Origin: an uncultured Clostridia bacterium
GTDB lineage: Bacteria > Bacillota > Clostridia > TANB77 > CAG-508
Direction: 5' to 3'
DNA length: 61,597 bases
Assembly (NCBI GenBank): GCA_944391015.1
Contig: CALXRZ010000002.1
Span: 1 to 61,597, forward strand
The notes under the pieces were generated by a model. That model saw only the letters and a list, made by a program, of their open reading frames with translations. It was not told the DNA's origin and did not search any database. Shown here one piece after another: positions 1,831 to 60,159 of this stretch (positions within the stretch are counted from its first letter, which is position 1; each line of letters opens with the position of its first letter). Made by a program: the position numbers and the translations under genes.

Positions 1831-1862
1831 TTTGCAAAAGGGGGACGGACCTAACTTGTAAA
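1831..1862 (+). repeat. ACGG-loop hairpin motif, copy a
   Basis: TTTGCAAAAGGGGGACGGACCTAACTTGTAAA, 4 nt after the fba stop. Confidence 0.75.
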
Positions 1863-6908: not shown

Positions 6909-6921
6909 AAAATTATGTCAA

Positions 6922-6962
6922 CAAAATTAGAAAAAGGGGACAGTCCCCTTTTTCTAATTTTG
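6922..6962. terminator. Bidirectional terminator
   Basis: Near-perfect palindrome CAAAATTAGAAAAAGGGGAC / GTCCCCTTTTTCTAATTTTG. Confidence 0.8.
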
Positions 6963-6972
6963 TTTATTTGGC

Positions 6973-8637: not shown

Positions 8638-8722
8638 TGGTGCGAGTAATGGGACTTGAACCCATACGCTATAAAGCACACGCCCCTCAAACGTGCCTGT
8701 CTGCCAGTTCCAGCATACTCGC
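8638..8722 (-). tRNA. tRNA-Leu (anticodon GAG), class II with long variable arm, CCA encoded
   Basis: Acceptor GCGAGTA/TACTCGC; anticodon stem CACGT/GCGTG with loop TTGAGGG; T arm GGGTTCAAGTCCC; 85 nt. Confidence 0.9.
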
Positions 8723-25680: not shown

Positions 25681-25751
25681 TTTGAATTACAATAATAAAT
25701 CATAAATCAAAAGAGTACGGAAGTTTAATTTTGAAAATAAAGAGGGATTAT

Positions 25752-26891
25752 ATGGAGCAAACAAATGTGCAAAACAGTGTAAAAGCAAGAGAAGCAAATA
25801 TGGAATTATTAAGAATTGTTGCAATGCTTATGGTTATAACCTTGCATTGCGTTGGCAGAGGTCTATTACTAAGCAATTCAGTGATAAGTAATGTAAACTT
25901 ACTCTTAATTCAGTTTTTAGATTCTTTTTCGCTCACAGCAAATTCACTTTTTATATTGCTAACTGGTTATTATTATATTGGTAAAAAGTTTAATTTACGA
26001 AAAATATTATCATTATGGGGGAAAACATTATTTTACTGCATCTTAATATTTACAATTTATAGCATATTAAATTTAAAGACTAACTTTCTAAATTCATTCT
26101 TCCCTGTTTTTTCAGGAGCATATTGGTTTATTACTTCATATATTGCATTATACTTTATTATGCCTTTTTTAAATATTGCAATAAATAAATTTAGCCAAAA
26201 ACAGTGCAAATTTTTAATTATTTTTTTAGTTATACTAATGGGAGTAATAAGAATAATATTCAATCCAGCTGATTTATTTAACAGCACATTTATGCATATA
26301 ATAGTAATATATATAATAGGTGCATACATTAAAAAATATGTTAAAATTGAGCCCAATAAGCAATATTTTATTAAATATGTACTAGTGGCAATTATATTTA
26401 CAGTAGCAATTACAATTTTAAATGTATTGGTTCACATTGTTCCAAAAACTTTAGATGTATGGATTATTATAGCTAATATACTTTCATACTTTAGAAACTT
26501 TATCAACATAATACTTGTATATATGGCCATATTGCTTTTTATGAAATTTAAAACTATAAATATAAAATCAAATAAGCTTTCAAAGCTAATATTATATATA
26601 TCACCATCAGTTTTTTCAATCTACATCATACACGATAATGTACACTTAAGAGATATGATTTGGCAAAAATTTAGTTTTATAAATTTAGCTAATTCGTGGC
26701 TAATGATTCCATACATAATATTGGCAATACTAATAGTCTTTACAGTTTGCTTAGCCATAGACTTAATAAGACGTGGAATATATACAGGGTTAAAGAAAAT
26801 AAAAATAATTAACAAAGGAATACAAAAAATAAATGAGCAAATTGATAAAGTAAATACAAAAATCAACTGCATATTTGAGTCCGAAGTTTAG
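25752..26891 (+). CDS. Acyltransferase family 3 membrane protein
   Basis: MELLRIVAMLMVITLHC-type N-terminus, about 10 TM helices; start set at the ATG after AGAGGGA. Confidence 0.8.
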   Translation: MEQTNVQNSVKAREANMELLRIVAMLMVITLHCVGRGLLLSNSVISNVNLLLIQFLDSFSLTANSLFILLTGYYYIGKKFNLRKILSLWGKTLFYCILIFTIYSILNLKTNFLNSFFPVFSGAYWFITSYIALYFIMPFLNIAINKFSQKQCKFLIIFLVILMGVIRIIFNPADLFNSTFMHIIVIYIIGAYIKKYVKIEPNKQYFIKYVLVAIIFTVAITILNVLVHIVPKTLDVWIIIANILSYFRNFINIILVYMAILLFMKFKTINIKSNKLSKLILYISPSVFSIYIIHDNVHLRDMIWQKFSFINLANSWLMIPYIILAILIVFTVCLAIDLIRRGIYTGLKKIKIINKGIQKINEQIDKVNTKINCIFESEV

Positions 26892-26918
26892 CAAAAGGGG
26901 ACGGGCTTAAATTGTAAA
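26888..26918 (+). repeat. ACGG-loop hairpin motif, copy b
   Basis: TTAGCAAAAGGGGACGGGCTTAAATTGTAAA; overlaps the acyltransferase stop; 48 nt before the pbp ATG. Confidence 0.8.
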
Positions 26919-26966
26919 AAAATATTCTAAATTAACCAAAAAGAAGTAACGAAAGGACTGAAAAGA

Positions 26967-28868
26967 ATGGAAGAAGAAAATAAAAAAAGTTCAAAAAAAG
27001 TTGGAATAATTATATCTGTAATTATAATTATACTTCTAATAGCAGGAATTATAGCGTGGTACACTATATCAAATATGGATAAAAATAAGCCAGACGAAGT
27101 TTTATATGCGTACATAGACTGCTTAAAAAATCAAGATTATGAAGGAATGTATTCACTAATTTCTGATTCAACAAAGCAAAGCATCGATAAAGACACATAT
27201 TTGGCAAGAAATAAAAATATATACGAGGGAATAGAAGCTACTAATATTGAAATTAGCAATGTGGAGACTACAATCAACAAAAAGCCTAAAAAATATAGTG
27301 TTAAATATACAATGACTTTTGATACTTTAGCAGGCAAATTAAGTTATGATTATGAAATGAACTTCGATAGACAAGATGATAATAAATACTATATTAACTG
27401 GGATTCTGGTTTGATTTTTCCAGATTTAAAAGAAAGTTATAAAATTAGAGTATATTCAAATTCTGGTTCAAGAGGAGATATACTAGATAGAAACGGAAAA
27501 GTGCTTGCTACAAATAATGAAAATGGTGAAAGAGAATATCCATATGGAGAAATAACAGCACATCTTGTTGGATATGTAAGAGGAATAAGCGAGGAAGAAT
27601 TAGAAGCACATAAAGGCGAAGGATACACTGCAAGTAGCATAATAGGAAAAAACGGTTTAGAATTAGCATTTGAAGATAGACTAAAAGGAAAAAATGGCAC
27701 AGGGATATATATGGTGGATGAAAACGAGAACGTACTTGAAACTATTGCAGAAACAGATATGGAAGATGGAGAAGACATTAAAACTACAATAGATGTAGAA
27801 TTACAACAAAAAATATATGAAGAATATGGAAATGACAATGGTTTTTCGGTTGCGATGAACCCTAAAACAGGAGAAGTACTAGCAATGGTAAGCACACCAA
27901 GCTTTGACTCAAACAAATTTATAACAGGCTTTACAGATGAAGAGTGGGAAGCTTTAAGCACCGATGAAGATACACCAATGTTTGCAAGGTATGAAAGCAC
28001 CTGGGTTCCTGGTTCATCATTTAAACCAATTACAGGGGCTATAGGACTTACAACAAATAGCTTCACAGCTACAGAAAGCTTTGGTAACAGTACATTAAGT
28101 TGGCAGAAAGATGAAAGTTGGGGAGACTACAAAGTTACAACATTAACTACTTATGGAGGAGCATCTAACCTAAGAAATGCACTTATATACTCTGATAATG
28201 TATACTTTGCAAAAGCAGCTATTCGTATTGGGGCAGATACATTTGCAAAACAATTGCTAAAAATTGGCTTTGATAAAGAAATGGACTTTCCAATTTCAAT
28301 GTCAACATCACAATTTGGAAGCAATAACGAATTCTCATCAGAAATAAGCTTAGCTGACTCTGGATATGGACAAGGTAAAATACTAGTAAACCCATTACAC
28401 ATCGCTTCAGTTTATTCAGCATTTGTAAATGACGGAAATATGATAAAACCTTACATAGAATATGCAAAAACAAATACTGATACTGATTTGAATGAAAAAA
28501 CAGATGAAAGTAAAGAAAAAAGCACAGAAGAAAGTGAGCAAAAATACTGGATAGAAAATGCTTTTTCAAAAGAAGTAGCCAATGAGATAAGAGATGACTT
28601 AATACAAGTAGTAGAAAACCCAAATGGAACTGGATACGAAGCAAGAATAAATGGATTAACACTTGCTGGAAAAACAGGAACAGCAGAACTAAAAGGAGCA
28701 GGAGAAGATGAGGGAGAAGAGCTAGGATGGTTTAACACTTTTGTAGTAAGTGACGAGGATGACGAACAACTACTAATGATAAATATGATAGAAAATGTAG
28801 AAAATAGAGGAGGAAGCCATTATTTACTTCCAATTATAAAAAGAATAATACAAGATTATTTATTATAA
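26967..28868 (+). CDS. Class B penicillin-binding protein (transpeptidase)
   Basis: N-terminal TM, SSFKP (SxxK), YSDN (SxN), KTGTAE (KTG). Confidence 0.9.
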   Translation: MEEENKKSSKKVGIIISVIIIILLIAGIIAWYTISNMDKNKPDEVLYAYIDCLKNQDYEGMYSLISDSTKQSIDKDTYLARNKNIYEGIEATNIEISNVETTINKKPKKYSVKYTMTFDTLAGKLSYDYEMNFDRQDDNKYYINWDSGLIFPDLKESYKIRVYSNSGSRGDILDRNGKVLATNNENGEREYPYGEITAHLVGYVRGISEEELEAHKGEGYTASSIIGKNGLELAFEDRLKGKNGTGIYMVDENENVLETIAETDMEDGEDIKTTIDVELQQKIYEEYGNDNGFSVAMNPKTGEVLAMVSTPSFDSNKFITGFTDEEWEALSTDEDTPMFARYESTWVPGSSFKPITGAIGLTTNSFTATESFGNSTLSWQKDESWGDYKVTTLTTYGGASNLRNALIYSDNVYFAKAAIRIGADTFAKQLLKIGFDKEMDFPISMSTSQFGSNNEFSSEISLADSGYGQGKILVNPLHIASVYSAFVNDGNMIKPYIEYAKTNTDTDLNEKTDESKEKSTEESEQKYWIENAFSKEVANEIRDDLIQVVENPNGTGYEARINGLTLAGKTGTAELKGAGEDEGEELGWFNTFVVSDEDDEQLLMINMIENVENRGGSHYLLPIIKRIIQDYLL

Positions 28869-28919
28869 CATATTTATTATGAAATAGATTAATATGTCCT
28901 TAAATTTTATGCAAACTGA

Positions 28920-28950
28920 TTTGCAATTAGGAACGGGCCTATATTGTAAA
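28920..28950 (+). repeat. ACGG-loop hairpin motif, copy c
   Basis: TTTGCAATTAGGAACGGGCCTATATTGTAAA. Confidence 0.75.
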
Positions 28951-29005
28951 TCGGTTTATATATTGTAAAAAATAAAGGCATCTTAATTTTCTATTACATA
29001 GGGAT

Positions 29006-29052
29006 GTATAGGAAAAATCGACTTTTTTGAAATGTCGATTTTTTCCGTATAC
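29006..29052. terminator. Bidirectional terminator between pbp and dpaB
   Basis: GTATAGGAAAAATCGAC / GTCGATTTTTTCCGTATAC; contains a 22-mer repeated at 37280..37301. Confidence 0.65.
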
Positions 29053-29068
29053 AACTAGGTAGTTATAT

Positions 29069-29650
29069 TCATAAAATTATTGGTTCAATTTGTTCTCTAT
29101 CCAAAGCCTTTTCTATAGTAGGAATTAGATATTTAAAATCAGCTACCAAAGAGCGAGGCTTTGTGATTGGATTATCCTGTTTAAATGGTACGAAAAAATA
29201 ATTATTTCTATTTAATAATTTCCCTATATTTTCGGCACTACCAGATAGCCCATCATTTGTGGAGATAGCTATTACAACCGGATTATTATTTCGCAAATGA
29301 GATTTTGTAGCCATAAGTACTGGAGTATCTGTTATACCATTTGCAAGTTTCGCAATAGTATTTCCAGAGCACGGAGCAATTACCATTATGTCTGTAAGCT
29401 TTTTTGGTCCTATAGGTTCAGCACCTTGAATTGTATGGATTATATCTGACTTTCCGGTAATCTCTTTAACTTCATCTATATAATCTTGAGCTTTACCAAA
29501 TTTAGTATCTAACGTATATGAATTATATGACATTATCGGCAAAATATCTGCATTTTCATTTTTGAGTTTTTTAAGCTCTTCTAATACTGTTTTAAAAGTA
29601 CAGAAAGAACCAGTAAATGCAAAGCCTACTTTTTTATTTTCTAACTTCAA
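29069..29650 (-). CDS. dpaB: Dipicolinate synthase subunit B (SpoVFB)
   Basis: Aligns by eye along its length with B. subtilis SpoVFB as I recall it (GFAFTGSFCT, VIAPCSGNTIAKLANGITDTPVLMA, VVIAISTND); start tentatively at the TTG after AAGGAAG (track ORF extends to 29674). Confidence 0.8.
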   Translation of the reverse strand: MKLENKKVGFAFTGSFCTFKTVLEELKKLKNENADILPIMSYNSYTLDTKFGKAQDYIDEVKEITGKSDIIHTIQGAEPIGPKKLTDIMVIAPCSGNTIAKLANGITDTPVLMATKSHLRNNNPVVIAISTNDGLSGSAENIGKLLNRNNYFFVPFKQDNPITKPRSLVADFKYLIPTIEKALDREQIEPIIL

Positions 29651-29717
29651 AAAAAACACTTCCTTTCCAAACAACGTATTACTATATAATATGTCATTAT
29701 GTAAAGCAAAGTGAATT

Positions 29718-29748
29718 TTTACAATTTAAGCCCGTCTCCAATTGCAAA
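29718..29748 (-). repeat. ACGG-loop hairpin motif, copy d
   Basis: Reverse complement TTTGCAATTGGAGACGGGCTTAAATTGTAAA; 5 nt after the recombinase stop, upstream of dpaB. Confidence 0.8.
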
Positions 29749-29753
29749 TTGGT

Positions 29754-30734
29754 TCACACAAAGTTTAAAGGATTAGACTCAACTGCGTTTCTAACTTGTT
29801 CGTTACTAACGTGAGTATATATTTCAGTAGTTGCAATACTTTCGTGACCTAAAAGTTCTTGTAAGGCGCGTATGTCTACGTGCCCATATTGATACATTAA
29901 AGTAGCCGCAGTGTGTCTTAATTTGTGAGTAGAATATTTAGAGGTATCTAAGCCAGCTTTCATTAGTTCTCGTTCGACTATATACTGTACCATACGGTTG
30001 CTGATTCGTTCTTTTCTTTTACTTAAAAATAATGCTTTATTAGAGCCTTTTGAATCAACTTTAACACCTTCTTTTGGCCTAACAGACATATAATCTTGTA
30101 TCGCTTTTATACAAGATCCATTTAGGTAAATAGTGCGCTCTTTGTTACCTTTACCTATTACAGTAAGTCTATTTTCACTAAAATCAATATTTGAAATATT
30201 GATTCCTACTAGCTCTGACAAACGCAATCCACAATTTAGAAATAGCGTAATAATAGCATAATCTCTTTCTTTGTTTTCATCATTTTCATCAGCTGTAACA
30301 TTTAAAAGCTTTTTACTATCATCCAAAGACAAATATTTAGGCATACGTTTTTCTTGTTTAGGAGTTTTTATACCTATAGCAGGATTGTCATCAATTAGTT
30401 TTTGATCAAATAAATATGCAAAAAATATTCTTATGGTAGATATTTTTCTCGCTCTAGTAGCAGGCTTGCTCCCTTGATTTAAAGCAAGGTAGGAGAGAAA
30501 GGAGTTAATATCATTTGTAGTTATTTTTTTTAAAGTTTGTATATCGAAATCTTTAATATTTATTTTAGAAAAGTCATTTTCTTTAGTTAATTTAAAGTTG
30601 ATTTTCATATATTTTAAAAACATATTTAAGTCATAATTATATTCTTTAACAGAATTTGGAGATTTATTTAGAACCACAGCTGAATAGTCTAAAAATGAAT
30701 TTATGTATTCGGGATTTAAATCAGAATTTATCAT
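29754..30734 (-). CDS. Tyrosine site-specific recombinase (XerC/XerD-like integrase)
   Basis: SAM-like N-terminal domain; HKLRHTAAT and LLGHESIATTEIYTHV catalytic blocks. Confidence 0.9.
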   Translation of the reverse strand: MINSDLNPEYINSFLDYSAVVLNKSPNSVKEYNYDLNMFLKYMKINFKLTKENDFSKINIKDFDIQTLKKITTNDINSFLSYLALNQGSKPATRARKISTIRIFFAYLFDQKLIDDNPAIGIKTPKQEKRMPKYLSLDDSKKLLNVTADENDENKERDYAIITLFLNCGLRLSELVGINISNIDFSENRLTVIGKGNKERTIYLNGSCIKAIQDYMSVRPKEGVKVDSKGSNKALFLSKRKERISNRMVQYIVERELMKAGLDTSKYSTHKLRHTAATLMYQYGHVDIRALQELLGHESIATTEIYTHVSNEQVRNAVESNPLNFV

Positions 30735-30946
30735 AATATGTTCACCTCTAAAATTTCGTTTGTTATAATATCCTTTTACTAAAATATTTAGATATTATAA
30801 CGTGATTTTTATCATAGTTTTTTAATTGCACAAAATGTTCTGAAAATAATATATACTAATTTTGTAATAAATTCAAGAAATTTACTTGATTTTTTCAGCA
30901 AAATATTTCATAATGATAATTATAAATAGCAAAGGGAGAATTAAGT

Positions 30947-31936
30947 ATGAACAGTAATATTGAAAATGTTGAAAAAATGATAATAGAAAATTTACAAAAT
31001 AAAATTTATTTTAATATGAGCATTAGCTATAGCGAATTTTTGAACTTATATAATCCATACAAGGAGATAGTTAGTGAGGAAGAATTTGCAAAGATTTTAG
31101 GAATAAGCTATGACAACTTAATAATTATGAAGTATAGAGGAACTAGATCTAAAATTAAAACTTCACTTTTAGAAAATAAAGTTTCAGAGGAAAGACTAAG
31201 TCAAATTAAGGAAACATTAAAAAGTCAAGGATTAGAAAATGCAACTATAGATTATGATAAATTTTTACAATTATATGAACAATTTAAATTTGAAATGTCA
31301 GAACCAGAATTTGCACAGTTAATAGGTATTTCTTATACCAACTGGAGTAATATGAAAAATGCAAATTCAAGAGCGATAATACTAAAATCTACAAGCAAAC
31401 CAATATCTGAAGAAAGAAAAGATGAAATCAAACAAAAAATTATAAAAAGTGGTTATGCCAATAAACTTATAGGTTATGAAGAATTTTTGCAATTATTTAA
31501 TCAATTTAAAGGAGAAATGATAGAATCCGATTTTGCACAATTGTTAGGCATTACTTATTTGAATTGGAATAATTTGAAAACTGGTAAAAGAAGAGTAAGA
31601 ATTTTAAAGTTAAATGATGAAAATACGGTTGAAGAAGATAAAGCAATAAAGAGCTCAAGTATTCATTCTATAGAAGAAATAAAGCAACAAGTAGAAATGC
31701 AGATAAGTGAAAGCTCAACTCCTATAGATGTAATGCAAATGTGCTTACAAGCTGGAATGAAAAGAAATCAAACTTTAAAATATTGTATGGATAAATTTAG
31801 CTTAACTAAAACAGAACTTTTGAAGATGATAACACAATGCTTGCAAGATAAGAAAACGAGTAAAAATGTAATGAAAGAGAATCGTAAGAATAAAGACATA
31901 GGGGAGAATAAAGGCTCTGATAACAAATGTATTTAA
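30947..31936 (+). CDS. Hypothetical protein with three tandem HTH-like repeats
   Basis: Three repeats of about 75 aa of the type I.Y.(E/K)FL.L(Y/F)N.(Y/F)K.E(M/I).E.(E/D)FA.(I/L)LGI(S/T)Y.N; divergent from the recombinase gene. Confidence 0.6.
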   Translation: MNSNIENVEKMIIENLQNKIYFNMSISYSEFLNLYNPYKEIVSEEEFAKILGISYDNLIIMKYRGTRSKIKTSLLENKVSEERLSQIKETLKSQGLENATIDYDKFLQLYEQFKFEMSEPEFAQLIGISYTNWSNMKNANSRAIILKSTSKPISEERKDEIKQKIIKSGYANKLIGYEEFLQLFNQFKGEMIESDFAQLLGITYLNWNNLKTGKRRVRILKLNDENTVEEDKAIKSSSIHSIEEIKQQVEMQISESSTPIDVMQMCLQAGMKRNQTLKYCMDKFSLTKTELLKMITQCLQDKKTSKNVMKENRKNKDIGENKGSDNKCI

Positions 31937-32288
31937 TTTTTTAAGACTATGATAAAATGAAATGACAGAAATATTAAGAGTTGATTACGAGAAATGGGCT
32001 CCAATTGCCCAATCTGGTTCAATCAACTCTGTATAAATAATATATCATAAGTTTATGTAATAGCCAATATAAAGTTAATGCTAATTTTTATATAAAAAAT
32101 AATATAAAAATTTTTATTCTGTAAATAATTAGAAAGGGGAAATGATGGCACTTTCAAAAGAACAAACAATGTTATTGGACTTATTAAAGAGTTTAAAATT
32201 TGTATGATTTAAATATTTACTTGTATGCAAGATATTTAGTATAGAATAAGAAGTAGGGAGTGCAATAAATAACTCATATAAAAAAGGA

Positions 32289-32328
32289 ATCTCTTATTGC
32301 ACAAAATCAAAGTTTTGTGCAATAAGAG
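32289..32328 (-). terminator. Strong intrinsic terminator on the minus strand with no annotated gene upstream
   Basis: 17-bp perfect stem TCTCTTATTGCACAAAA / TTTTGTGCAATAAGAGA; on the minus strand it is followed by TTCCTTTTTAT. Confidence 0.6.
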
Positions 32329-32857
32329 ATAGGAGCATAATATAATACAGCCATAAACCTCTACTATCTATAATTTTTTCTTTTTAAATATTAAATTCTA
32401 TGAAAATTTTTCAAAAATCTCCAAAGTGCCTATTTCTCTGTATTTGCCTTATTTCACAGACAACAAACTATATGCCTAAAAAATAAAAACGGCTTAAAAT
32501 CGATTCTCGTGCGTCGCATTTTTGATACTTCTTTGCAAATCTACATATGATAGTAGTTTCTTCAAAAAAATCTACTTTTTAATGGTAATCTTGTAAAATC
32601 AATATTTAATCTAAAATTTTAAGCAAGTATTTTATCAACTTAAAAATAAAAATGCCTTAAAATTGATTTTGGAAAGCCAGTAACATTATTTTGTATGTTT
32701 TTAGCTTGTAATTTATTTTTTATATTTAAAAAAGTTTTCTATTTATTATTTTTATTCTAAATTAAAAGATTGCACAAAATTTTATTATATATTATTATAT
32801 ATTTTGATAATTTATATATATTAAAACTGTGCTATACCCCCTACTCTATCGTTTTAT

Positions 32858-32891
32858 CTAAAAAAAGATTAGTTATATTTCAAACTAATCT
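32858..32891 (-). terminator. Terminator of the fic gene
   Basis: AGATTAGTT / AACTAATCT stem; T7 tract on the minus strand. Confidence 0.65.
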
Positions 32892-32971
32892 ATAAATTGT
32901 AATTTGTATTATAAGTAACCCTTAAAACTATTTATCTTTTTTTTATTAAATTAGTTTATATTTATAATATA

Positions 32972-34033
32972 CTAGTTCTCAGATAAAAGTTTTATTAATC
33001 TTGTATTTTTATATAATTTTTCTCTACCTATTTTTTCGGATTCTAAAAGTCCTATTTCTTCTAACTGATTTAAATATGAAGTTGCAGTAATTCTAGTAAC
33101 GTTACAAGCTTTTTCTATATAGGCTATTTTCGTATAAACTTCATAAAATAAACTTTCTAATAATTCTTTTGAGTATATTTTAGGTAGTTTACTTCTAAAT
33201 TCTTCTTTGTAATTTATCATTTCATTTTGAATCTTTTTAATTAATAATATTGTTTCTTTAGATGTAATTTCAATACCTTTTAAAATATATAAAATCCATT
33301 CCTCAAAATTGTTATTATTTCTAACTTCATTAAATAATTTATAATATTCTTGTTTTGTCTTATTTATATATTTACTCAAGTATAGAATTGGGCTATCAAT
33401 TAAGTTATGTAATACAAGATATAGAATATTTAATATTCTTCCTGTTCTTCCATTTCCATCATAAAAAGGATGAATACTTTCAAATTGATAATGTATCAGA
33501 CAAACTTTTGTTAATGGGTCTATTCCATCTTCATTATTGTTTATAAAGTCTTCTAAATTCTTTAAATAAGTTCTTATTTCTTGTTCGCTTTGAGGTGGAG
33601 TATATATTGTTTCTCCAGTAATTGAATTTTTTAATTCCGTACCTGGTAATTTTCTAATCCCAGCATTATTATGCTCAATAGTTCCTTGTATTTTAATAAT
33701 AGTGTTTGTATTTATATAACCATCTTTTTTAATTTGTTCATATCCAAGCCAAATAGCATTTCTATAATCCACAACTTCTTTTGCATTTTCTTCTTTATAA
33801 CCACTTTCTGTTAGTACTTTATAAATATCATCGTGAGTTGTAACAATATTTTCAATAGCACTACTATCTTTCGCTTCATTAATAGTTACTGCGTTTATTA
33901 AAATATGCATATTTGGAATTGTATTTGAATATCCTTTTAATTCTGCTAATGCTCTTGATGATAAAGTTAATTGTTCTAAAATTTTATTTGTTTTTAGATT
34001 AACATTTTTATATGGTAACATTTCTAGTTTCAT
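32972..34033 (-). CDS. Fic-family protein (AMPylase-type)
   Basis: Canonical HPFYDGNGRTGR motif; C-terminal winged-helix-like segment. Confidence 0.9.
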   Translation of the reverse strand: MKLEMLPYKNVNLKTNKILEQLTLSSRALAELKGYSNTIPNMHILINAVTINEAKDSSAIENIVTTHDDIYKVLTESGYKEENAKEVVDYRNAIWLGYEQIKKDGYINTNTIIKIQGTIEHNNAGIRKLPGTELKNSITGETIYTPPQSEQEIRTYLKNLEDFINNNEDGIDPLTKVCLIHYQFESIHPFYDGNGRTGRILNILYLVLHNLIDSPILYLSKYINKTKQEYYKLFNEVRNNNNFEEWILYILKGIEITSKETILLIKKIQNEMINYKEEFRSKLPKIYSKELLESLFYEVYTKIAYIEKACNVTRITATSYLNQLEEIGLLESEKIGREKLYKNTRLIKLLSEN

Positions 34034-49467: not shown

Positions 49468-49617
49468 GCAAGCAATGTAAGTTTTAAATTTTTCTTTGAG
49501 TGCTTAAGGTGGGGACCAACAAGCTTACAAACTGTAAAATGAAGCTTTAGCTGAATTTTTTACAGTTTGTGCGATGTTGGGGGCCGAAAAGAAAAATTTA
49601 AAACTTACATTGTTTGC
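49468..49617. repeat. 150-nt imperfect palindrome upstream of secA
   Basis: 29-bp arms GCAAGCAATGTAAGTTTTAAATTTTTCTT / AAGAAAAATTTAAAACTTACATTGTTTGC (1 mismatch) plus inner arms ACAAACTGTAAAA / TTTTACAGTTTGT. Confidence 0.8.
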
Positions 49618-49670: not shown

Positions 49671-49702
49671 TTTCAGCAATGGGGACGGACTCATTTTGTA
49701 AA
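49671..49702 (+). repeat. ACGG-loop hairpin motif, copy e
   Basis: TTTCAGCAATGGGGACGGACTCATTTTGTAAA; 43 nt before the ATG at 49746. Confidence 0.7.
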
Positions 49703-51816: not shown

Positions 51817-51847
51817 TTTACAATTTAAGCCCGTCCCCTTTTGCAAA
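51817..51847 (-). repeat. ACGG-loop hairpin motif, copy f
   Basis: Reverse complement identical to copy b over 29 nt; 1 nt after the ytvI-like stop. Confidence 0.8.
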
Positions 51848-51848
51848 T

Positions 51849-52944
51849 TTATCTCTCTAATATAGATTTAACAACTCCTTTATCAATTATTGTTCCATAT
51901 ATGTTTTTTAGTATTATTAGTACTATTGGTCCAAAGAGTAAGCCCCACACTCCTATAAATTTAAAGCCTGTATACATTGCAATTAGTGTAAATATAGGAT
52001 GTATTCCGATACTACCACTAACTATTTTAGGTTCAACAAATTGTCTAACTATACTCATTACGCACCATAATGCAAAAATACCTATTGCTAATTTTAAATC
52101 TCCCGAAAAAGCCAAAATTACTGTCCAAGGTATCATTACAGTTCCAGAGCCGAATATAGGTAAGGCATCAACAAAGGCAATTCCGAATTGCAATTAGCAA
52201 AGGGAACTCTATATTCCAACCTAAAAAGTAAAAAATGTATAATCCTACTAATGAAATGAAGAATGATATTACTACTAATGTTAACTCTGCTTTTAAATAT
52301 CCACCTAATGTTTTTATTAAGGCACGTAAATGCACACCTATTCTTTTTACCCACGTTTCCGGCAAATGATGCTCTAATTGATCAATCATATATATTTTGT
52401 CTACACACATAAAATATAGTGCTATTAAAGTAATTACTGTATATATTCCAAGAGTTGGCATTGAGGTTATAAATTCTATTGTTTTGGTTAGTACTCCTTT
52501 TATCCAGTCTGTTACAGTATCTAAAAATTCAAGGCCAGAATTTTGAACTATATCCATTACCTCTTGTGGAATATTAAATTTACTTAAGTCTATACTTGAA
52601 ACAATGTTTTGAAAAATTTGACTTCCAGTATCTATATACACATTTATATTTGACATTAAATTAGATGTTTCTGTAACTAAAGTGGTAATTATCCAAATTA
52701 AAATACCTACGATTATTGCTATGGCTATAATAAAAATAATTATTGAACTTGTTCTTCTACTTAGCTTTACTTTTTTCATCAGTAACCTAATAATTGGTTC
52801 TAATAGCAAAGATATGACAAATGCAACTAAAAAAGGCATATAGAATACGGCTAATTTGAAAGCTAAATACACTACAACAATGCTTAAAACTAGTATAAAA
52901 ATATTTTTTATTATTTTATTTAAGTGGTTCATATCTACTACCAT
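51849..52944 (-). pseudogene. ytvI: AI-2E/PerM-family transporter (YtvI-like) split by a 1-nt frameshift
   Basis: Track ORFs 52168..52944 and 51849..52193 are the N- and C-terminal parts of one permease; removing the base at about 52185 gives ...PLLIAIGIAFVDALPIFGSG... Confidence 0.7.
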
Positions 52945-60127: not shown

Positions 60128-60159
60128 TTTCAGCAATTTTGGACGGTCCCAATTGCAAA
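60128..60159 (+). repeat. ACGG-loop hairpin motif, divergent copy g
   Basis: TTTCAGCAATTTTGGACGGTCCCAATTGCAAA; overlaps the last codons of the cmk-like gene on the opposite strand. Confidence 0.45.

Follow-up and report, generated by a model that had tools for sequence, protein, structure and literature searches.

A 31-nt motif with the consensus TTTGCAAAAGGGGACGGGCTTAAATTGTAAA recurs at gene boundaries in a 61,597-nt stretch of DNA from an uncultured Clostridia bacterium (contig CALXRZ010000002.1 of assembly GCA_944391015.1, positions 1 to 61,597; hereafter, the window). This motif is probably the unit of a young family of small interspersed repeats, non-autonomous and restricted to one lineage, of the kind represented by repetitive extragenic palindromic (REP) sequences and by REP doublets forming hairpins (REPINs), and it also fits a miniature inverted-repeat transposable element (MITE) with 31-nt terminal inverted repeats. 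The family is a fresh example of a known element type and not a novel RNA signal. In a first-pass annotation of the window, the motif had been described as a stem-loop whose loop is fixed and whose inner stem covaries, and a protein-binding RNA hairpin, a REP-like DNA element, and a recombination site were offered as explanations. The stem-loop description was not sustained, since the commonest variant folded no better than shuffled sequences and no covariation was detected. Among the three explanations, the REP-like one was supported by the lineage restriction of the family, the near identity of its copies, the insertion of doublets as units, presence/absence polymorphism, and collapse to long palindromes.

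The 31-nt Family and Its Copies in the Window

A profile search recovered 80 copies in 413 kb, representing 54 unique sites and including six within the 61.6-kb window; all 80 came from the species of the window, four sister metagenome-assembled genomes (MAGs), and a few metagenome contigs. The density was about one copy per 10 kb, 20 of the 59 copies in the first sample were identical to the consensus, and the copies were either intergenic or overlapped only the last codons of genes. In the window, whose G+C content is 28.7%, the pattern ACGG-N7-TTGTAAA was found six times exactly and once with one mismatch (1.09 expected), and seven or more occurrences were obtained in 0 of 100 shuffles. A covariance model (CM) run on the window with filters off scored copies a to f at 25-54 bits (E <= 4e-5), the next matches having E >= 0.009. 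The sequences initially listed as copies, with their CM and hidden Markov model (HMM) scores, are as follows:

Copy a, 1831..1862, + strand: single unit that carries an additional G and has diverged from the consensus (HMM 25.8 bits, CM 28.9 bits).
Copy b, 26888..26918, + strand: single unit, TTAGCAA variant (CM 52 bits).
Copy c, 28908..28962 with its core at 28920-28950, + strand: single unit with 12-13 nt extensions on both sides (CM 43.5 bits).
Copy d, 29718..29748, - strand: single unit (CM 47.7 bits).
Copy e, 49672..49702, + strand: degenerate single unit, TTCAGCAAT... (HMM 23.5 bits, CM 25.1 bits).
Copy f, 51817..51847, - strand: identical to the family consensus (HMM 40.1 bits, CM 54.4 bits).
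Copy g, 60128..60159, + strand: non-member, a short GGAC/GTCC hairpin in coding sequence that overlaps the end of a cmk-like gene.

Six of the seven copies first claimed were thus retained, copy e being better placed at 49672-49702, and copy g was discarded, as it gave no nhmmer match at E <= 10 and its CM score (12.1 bits at 60130-60159, E 0.77) was noise. The invariance reported for ACGG held inside the window and broke down elsewhere, where ACAGG and ACGAG variants occur.

The location of copies a, b, d, and f at same-strand stop codons was confirmed. Copy a starts 4 nt past the stop of a class-II fructose-bisphosphate aldolase gene, and its ortholog in a sister genome (L030:36-66) equals the consensus, the window copy showing about five differences. 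An acyltransferase gene takes its TAG stop from inside copy b, which starts at -4 nt relative to that stop. Copy d starts 5 nt past the stop of a gene for a Xer-like tyrosine recombinase (Phage_integrase family), upstream of dpaB, and copy f lies 1 nt past the stop of an AI-2E transporter fragment; an orthologous gene end in L078 lacks copy f, and homology also ends there. The spacing described between the copies and the next same-strand start was likewise found: the penicillin-binding protein (PBP) gene starts 48 nt beyond the end of copy b, the DUF1980 gene starts 43 nt beyond copy e (itself 60 nt after a structured repeat at 49468-49612), and copy f ends 33 nt before the next start. For copy d this distance is 43 nt to the first possible start of the open reading frame (ORF), or 67 nt to the start called in metagenome contigs. 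Copy c lies between the PBP stop and a real bidirectional terminator at about 29012-29048; in its extended form, TTATGCAAAC-tga ... tcg-GTTTATATA, it makes a 55-nt hairpin with a fold of -21.9 kcal/mol (z -5.2). In agreement with the original description, no T tract follows any copy, and a terminator scan called nothing at copies b, c, or d.

Two further observations were made beside these copies. A hairpin, TTAGCAAAAGACCACAAAACCTCTTGCTAA, lies at 804-833, upstream of the aldolase gene; it begins like copy b (TTAGCAAAAG), scored 17.2 bits with the family model, and could be a heavily decayed relative, or the match could be due to chance. The AI-2E transporter gene next to copy f (51849-52944, - strand) is split into an ORF of 258 aa, matching Pfam profile positions 4-217, and another of 114 aa, matching positions 229-325, and is a frameshifted pseudogene or an assembly error.

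The family was found in a narrow set of genomes. In a scan of 185,579 species genomes, multi-copy matches were obtained only in four MAGs of 'uncultured Clostridia BRZ', the other matches being single chance hits in unrelated genomes. A metagenome scan yielded 13 loci, and no family match was found in a viral collection; a phage origin of the family was accordingly rejected, the viral contigs being without a match. The locus itself encodes YabP, YabQ, DivIC, a DpaB-like flavoprotein, Rho, and SecA, which points to an uncultured spore-forming Clostridia lineage, and its pbp region recurs in metagenome contigs. Relatives were ranked by PBP identity, and about 65 kb from those at 86%, 84%, and 79% were examined. 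Copies b, c, and d were all present in a 98% strain, copy b being found in strains L001-L007 and L128 (98-100% identical). The 91% relative (L127) had an identical copy c and no copy b. In the 65 kb from the 86%, 84%, and 79% relatives there were zero copies and the sites of b, c, and d were empty, the gap between the acyltransferase and PBP genes measuring 11-19 nt versus 75 nt in the window. Copy b was missing from L124, L125, L126, and L127, in which that gap is 11-19 nt, copy c from L124-L126, and at the site of copy d both L124 and L125 had 17 unrelated nt instead. Since the copies were lost from view beyond the 91% relative, the family is considered young and confined to a narrow clade.

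It was also observed at this boundary that the PBP gene is preceded by two acyltransferase genes in tandem in the 86% relative (L124:7650-9988) and apparently in the 91% relative too. The window (25731-26891) and L125 have one acyltransferase gene only, and copy b is situated at the junction left by the missing second gene.

Inverted Doublets, Insertion, and Long Palindromes

About half of the copies sit in inverted doublets, of which 21 were collected, 20 of them in the orientation '-> <-', in which the TTTGCAA ends face outward. Between the arms lie spacers of 4 to 255 nt that are unrelated in sequence. The two arms nearly always share a subvariant (AAA/AAA, GTT/GTT, or ATT/ATT, with TT/TT in L137), and therefore the conserved pairing runs between copies and not inside one. 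A 77-nt doublet gave a fold of -52 kcal/mol.

At least one doublet was shown to have been inserted whole, after a stop codon and ahead of the following ribosome-binding site. In L069 and L099, a doublet of 31+107+31 nt is placed precisely between one gene's TAA and the AAGGAG of the following gene, with TTTT(A) on either flank as an apparent 4-5 nt duplication, and L081 provides the empty counterpart, with an intact 21-nt gap. At three loci, a doublet in one genome corresponds to a plain perfect palindrome, whose arm is the left half of the unit, in another. The direction of change at these loci, as at the filled and empty sites, was taken from a single outgroup-free comparison. The palindromes and their counterparts are as follows:

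Plain palindrome, window 6920..6964, no strand assigned: AACAAAATTAGAAAAAGGGGAC-AGT-CCCCTTTTTCTAATTTTGTT, perfect, between convergent genes (fold -27.9 kcal/mol, z -7.9; CM 17.6 bits).
Matching site, L030:5062-5880: two inverted units enclosing 757 bp.
Second pair: L052, palindrome, versus L025, doublet.
Third pair: L093, palindrome, versus L135 and L141, doublets.

The window palindrome is likely a collapsed doublet, because the sister genome has an inverted doublet at that site. More generally, the doublets and plain palindromes have the architecture of terminators (an A tract, a G+C-rich stem, and a U tract) and were found where terminators are expected; judged by this architecture, the palindrome at 6920-6964 is predicted to work as a bidirectional terminator.

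Rearrangements were also associated with the copies. The 757-bp segment of L030 carries a 137-aa gene that the window lacks, a two-gene difference of 3.2 kb with loss of homology separates L078 from the window, and a Fic gene is truncated in L093, the edges of these indels lying at copies. In one locus sampled twice (L135 and L141), the segment between the arms was 94% identical when inverted versus 71% in direct orientation; five other orthologous doublets were not inverted. Copies that run into genes can give them a stop or a new C-terminus, as seen for copy b, L019:5447, and L030:5850, the new end in L030 reading ...FSAKGDGLKL*. Within doublets, the antisense copies lie directly before ribosome-binding sites.

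Folding and Covariation of the Single Unit

It was examined whether one unit alone forms a conserved stem-loop. As RNA, the consensus gave -3.5 kcal/mol (z -0.8), no better than shuffles, and the variant ending in CTTGTTTTGTAAA (the GTT variant) gave -8.6 kcal/mol (z -2.9). The antisense strand gave 0 kcal/mol, and since it has no fold at all, the earlier claim that the arms pair only on the written strand, owing to a G:U pair, was right. The claim that the inner stem differs between copies and stays complementary was contradicted. Over 42 unique sites, positions 8-9 and 23-24 were AA/AA in 21, AA/TT in 10, TT/TT in 4, and TT/AA in 2, so that AA/AA is the commonest combination, and in the variable blocks TT occurs together with TT more often than with AA. 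No covariation within the unit was detected at these sites, the score being 0.119 versus 0.120 in shuffles. The stem-loop within one unit is real only weakly.

There was also no sign of a strong sequence constraint on the units. Orthologous copies in different MAGs differed by 1.7%, versus 3.1-5.2% in their flanks, which is not clearly different, and copy d showed 2 differences in 31 nt between strains with 98.7% overall identity. The first-pass annotation could not assign the motif to an RNA family; a scan of the window at the Rfam gathering thresholds gave no match of any kind, and Rfam at E <= 1 on five loci (11 copies) returned only RNase P matches. This negative result needs caution, because the same gathering-threshold scan missed a tRNA-Leu. 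That gene, tRNA-Leu(GAG) at 8638-8722 on the - strand, was found by ARAGORN.

Placement of Single Units after Stop Codons

The single units show a pronounced bias in strand and position. At 14 of 23 single sites, the stop of a sense gene of at least 90 codons lay within -30 to +17 nt of the TTTGCAA end, mostly at 0-5 nt, and the mirror arrangement, an antisense stop at the 3' end, was found at none of the 23; the corresponding counts in the first sample were 20 and 2. The first-pass observation that the copies are sense to their flanking genes was thereby placed on a strong statistical footing, and the expectation of non-random orientation and position was borne out across the larger set, in which single units are sense and mostly follow stops.

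Several routes to this bias are possible: the units may insert into the A run after TAA stops, their C-rich antisense form may be selected against in mRNAs, a 3' hairpin on the sense strand may bring a modest benefit, or insertion may be coupled to transcription and directed into the non-template strand. An insertion bias linked purely to replication is unlikely because copies d and e follow the gene strand, and replication-strand bias was rejected as the cause on the same ground. It is unlikely that the single units have been domesticated as a strand-specific signal 0-5 nt past stops, in which the G-rich, Shine-Dalgarno-like AAAGGGGACGGG and the G:U-only hairpin would act on the terminating ribosome or the mRNA 3' end. 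If this were so, single units would, for example, retain ribosomes for the next cistron or block 3' exonucleases, and the family would provide a REP-derived post-stop regulatory element in Clostridia.

Proposed Origin and Alternative Explanations

Under the favoured explanation, a mobile repeat of the REP/REPIN or MITE kind, the doublet would be moved by a transposase encoded elsewhere, either a single-copy enzyme of the Y1/RAYT type or a DDE enzyme, and the mobile form would be the doublet as a long hairpin in single-stranded DNA. Single units may be decayed halves of doublets or solo insertions. Once settled, doublets and collapsed palindromes would act as bidirectional terminators through an A tract, GGGGACGGGC paired with GCCCGTCCCC, and a U tract. 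The sense orientation and post-stop position of single units could then be explained if they are retained only where they are least harmful, or slightly beneficial, at the 3' end of the upstream mRNA. The clean insertion is equally compatible with a MITE that has 31-bp terminal repeats and duplicates 4-5 bp of its target; the missing conserved interior agrees poorly with such an element.

Several points weigh against a mobile repeat. In tblastn searches with IS200 TnpA and Escherichia coli RAYT queries, no transposase was found in about 430 kb, which is a fraction of each genome, and a Pfam scan of copy-adjacent genes gave no transposases among those scanned. Only one clean filled/empty pair was found, and the duplication at this pair lies in an A/T run and may not be a true target-site duplication. 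The spacers are unrelated in length as well as in sequence, unlike classic MITE families. Paired copies were not significantly better conserved than single ones, with mean HMM scores of 36.2 and 34.3 bits, respectively (Mann-Whitney p 0.24). Random insertion would not lead one to expect the very strong strand and position bias of single units, which calls for an additional assumption, and copies d and e track the gene strand and not the GC-skew arm.

A functional RNA element would account for this bias: the sense unit would fold in its G:U-dependent manner or present AAAGGGGACGGG after the stop, and binding by a protein or the ribosome would stabilise or process the upstream message or couple its translation to the next gene, selection explaining both spread and placement. 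The bias of single units toward the sense strand within about 0-5 nt of the stop, the fold possible on the written strand only, the better folding of the GTT variant, and the orientation of copies d and e by gene strand and not by replication arm are all in its favour. However, the commonest variant folds no better than chance, covariation and an Rfam match are lacking, the sequence drifts at about the neutral rate, close relatives have the same gene boundaries without the unit, and doublets put antisense copies directly before ribosome-binding sites, so that this explanation is unlikely. The units might otherwise be recombinase sites, that is, crossover sites of invertible segments or small gene cassettes, served by a tyrosine recombinase such as the Xer-like one, whose Phage_integrase-family gene ends 5 nt from copy d. 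The model would be the RecV-type switches, in which short inverted repeats flank 150-300 bp (PMC5386303, PMC5903667). The segment inverted between L135 and L141 and the gene bracketed by inverted units in L030 agree with it. However, homologous recombination between perfect 31-bp repeats also inverts segments, the five other orthologous doublets were not inverted, about half of the copies are single, many spacers (down to 4-22 nt) are too short for inversion, and the Xer-like gene is present and syntenic in relatives without copies; site-specific recombination is accordingly judged very improbable.

The lowest probability falls to ordinary terminators, or a motif for binding or uptake at the DNA level, whose repetition would merely reflect a stereotyped sequence used by the clade. 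The terminator architecture of doublets and plain palindromes at the expected places agrees with this, and a G-rich core with A/T-rich arms resembles the design of uptake sequences. However, 31 identical bases shared by dozens of sites cannot result from convergence, single units lack a U tract and were not called terminator-like, an uptake or binding motif should show no gene-strand bias, a density of about one copy per 10 kb also speaks against it, and an insertion event has already been partly shown in L069/L099 versus L081.

Promoter and coding signals were considered as well. A sigma-54 promoter was rejected by eye, the GG-to-GC spacing being 13 nt and the required one 10, and a sigma-70 promoter was rejected because the arms TTGCAA and TTGTAA make a poor -10. 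With the 3' TTGTAA taken as an outward -35, a -10 hexamer matching at 5/6 positions or more was found 16-18 nt downstream in 13 of 66 copies versus 7.6% of shifted controls; at 4/6 or more there was no excess, and this signal is a weak hint only, its count being inflated by orthologous copies. A start-stop mini-ORF (AAGGGG...TTG TAA) was discarded, as it is not conserved in the GTT variant.

Neighbouring Elements and Genome Context

A 10-nt motif, TTATGTTAAC (variants TTATGTAAAG and TTATGTCAAC), was observed exactly 3 nt from either end of the unit at about 16 of 42 sites, and also beside plain palindromes; copy c is flanked by it on both sides. It may be an extension of the palindrome, a target, or the context of a cleavage site. 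It resembles a XerD arm, and a dif/Xer site was rejected because neither a XerC arm nor a 6-nt spacer goes with it. A second repeat, unrelated to the 31-nt unit and about 130-190 nt long, is present in at least 14 copies and forms a rod-like hairpin with the nearly invariant core GAGTGCTTAAGGTGGGGACCAACAAGTTTACAAACTGT ... ACAGTTTGTACGATGTTGGGGGCCGAAG. Positions of both are as follows:

TTATGTTAAC motif, examples: window 28907-28916.
TTATGTTAAC motif, examples in L030: 5049-5058 and 5837-5846.
Second repeat, window: 49468-49612.
Second repeat, L040: 4893-5081.
Second repeat, L019: 5478-5672.
Second repeat, L053: 3000-3134 and 5162-5294.
Second repeat, L031: 767-917 and 2673-2816.
Second repeat, L088: 3637-3794.
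Second repeat, also in L135, L137, L138, and L141.

The closing stem of the second repeat, 20-30 bp long, differs per locus yet stays paired, with compensatory changes in 25 of 58 pairs, and the window copy gave a fold of -57 kcal/mol (z -8.4); no Rfam match was found for it. It is enclosed by about a third of the doublets of the 31-nt family and also occurs alone, and it could be a structured RNA or a mobile element landing in palindromes. At L032:1085-1330, the left half of this structured repeat, as present at the orthologous L040 site, has been replaced by a further MITE-like insert, whose inverted ends (TAGGCAATATGTATATTTA ... TAAATATACATATTGCCTA) are its own. Intergenic spots of this kind gather nested small elements.

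On a larger scale, GC skew and gene orientation both switch near 32 kb (window about 30000-34000), where the cumulative skew peaks, which suggests a replication terminus or the boundary of a large inversion. A 1-kb non-coding stretch of about 24% G+C lies at 31937-32971, and at the matching place L124 and L125 have prophage-like or ParA/ParB-bearing inserts. A search of the window with two simple patterns gave no dif-like site.

Significance and Comparison with Known Systems

To our knowledge, REP/REPIN-type repeats have been studied almost entirely in Proteobacteria, and the present case offers a clean, young family in uncultured, spore-forming, AT-rich gut Clostridia. Since filled and empty sites, inversion, and collapsed palindromes are all present, the family allows a comparison of how such elements live and decay in a genomic background of a very different kind. 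The units reshape gene boundaries by supplying stop codons, replacing terminators, and marking the edges of indels, and the extreme sense-strand, post-stop placement of the single units is the one genuinely odd property of the family. In genome annotation, these copies are better masked as a repeat than called as a new RNA gene.

Among the MITEs bounded by terminal inverted repeats are the Correia elements of Neisseria and, in the Bacillus cereus group, bcr1. The present family resembles MITEs in its inverted 31-bp ends, in insertion into A/T-rich intergenic targets with a short duplication (ambiguous here, in an A/T run), in overlapping gene ends and supplying stops, in possible outward promoter or terminator activity, and in nesting with small elements. 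It differs in that there is no conserved interior or fixed length (spacers of 4-255 nt, and one of 757 bp with a gene), half of the copies are single ends, and no parent insertion sequence was seen. With bidirectional intrinsic terminators, the doublets and collapsed palindromes share the A tract, the G+C-rich stem, the U tract, and the location between convergent genes, whereas single units lack the second arm and the U tract, and the sequence is shared by descent and not by convergence. As in the RecV switches of Clostridioides difficile (PMC5386303, PMC5903667), inverted repeats of about 20-30 bp flank intergenic segments of 100-250 bp, one of which was found here in both orientations; unlike in those switches, the same repeat occurs at dozens of loci and is often single, spacers go down to 4 nt, and no recombinase tracks the family.

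Compared with known REP/REPIN families, the host here is a Gram-positive Clostridia lineage of 28-29% GC, and the stem of the unit is A/U-rich and weak, with a G-rich asymmetric core. We know of no report of a gene-strand and stop-codon bias this strong for REPs. A literature search on REPIN/RAYT in Firmicutes and on MITEs at stop codons in Clostridium returned nothing relevant. One insertion shows an apparent duplication of 4-5 nt, a RAYT flanked by repeats would be expected and none was found in the roughly 430 kb searched, and the better conservation of doublets over singlets seen in Pseudomonas was not measurable here. REP/REPIN elements of Pseudomonas and Enterobacteria are mobilised by RAYT transposases (PMC3116915, PMC3337134, PMC5581495), one group of which has been reported in Clostridia (PMC5581495). 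Pseudomonas REPINs are doublets of one REP subtype with locus-specific spacers, their singlets being seen as decaying remnants (PMC3337134, PMC3116915), and 'long palindromic REP singlets' arise by excision of REPIN centres (PMC3337134). The likeness to the present family is close: the unit is a short, imperfect, extragenic palindrome, albeit a weak one (-3.5 to -8.6 kcal/mol), with many near-identical copies; doublets are inverted, of the same subtype, with variable spacers, and stand beside singlets; long perfect palindromes occur where the centre of a doublet was lost, the doublet being the unit of insertion and excision; and the family is lineage-restricted and vertically inherited.

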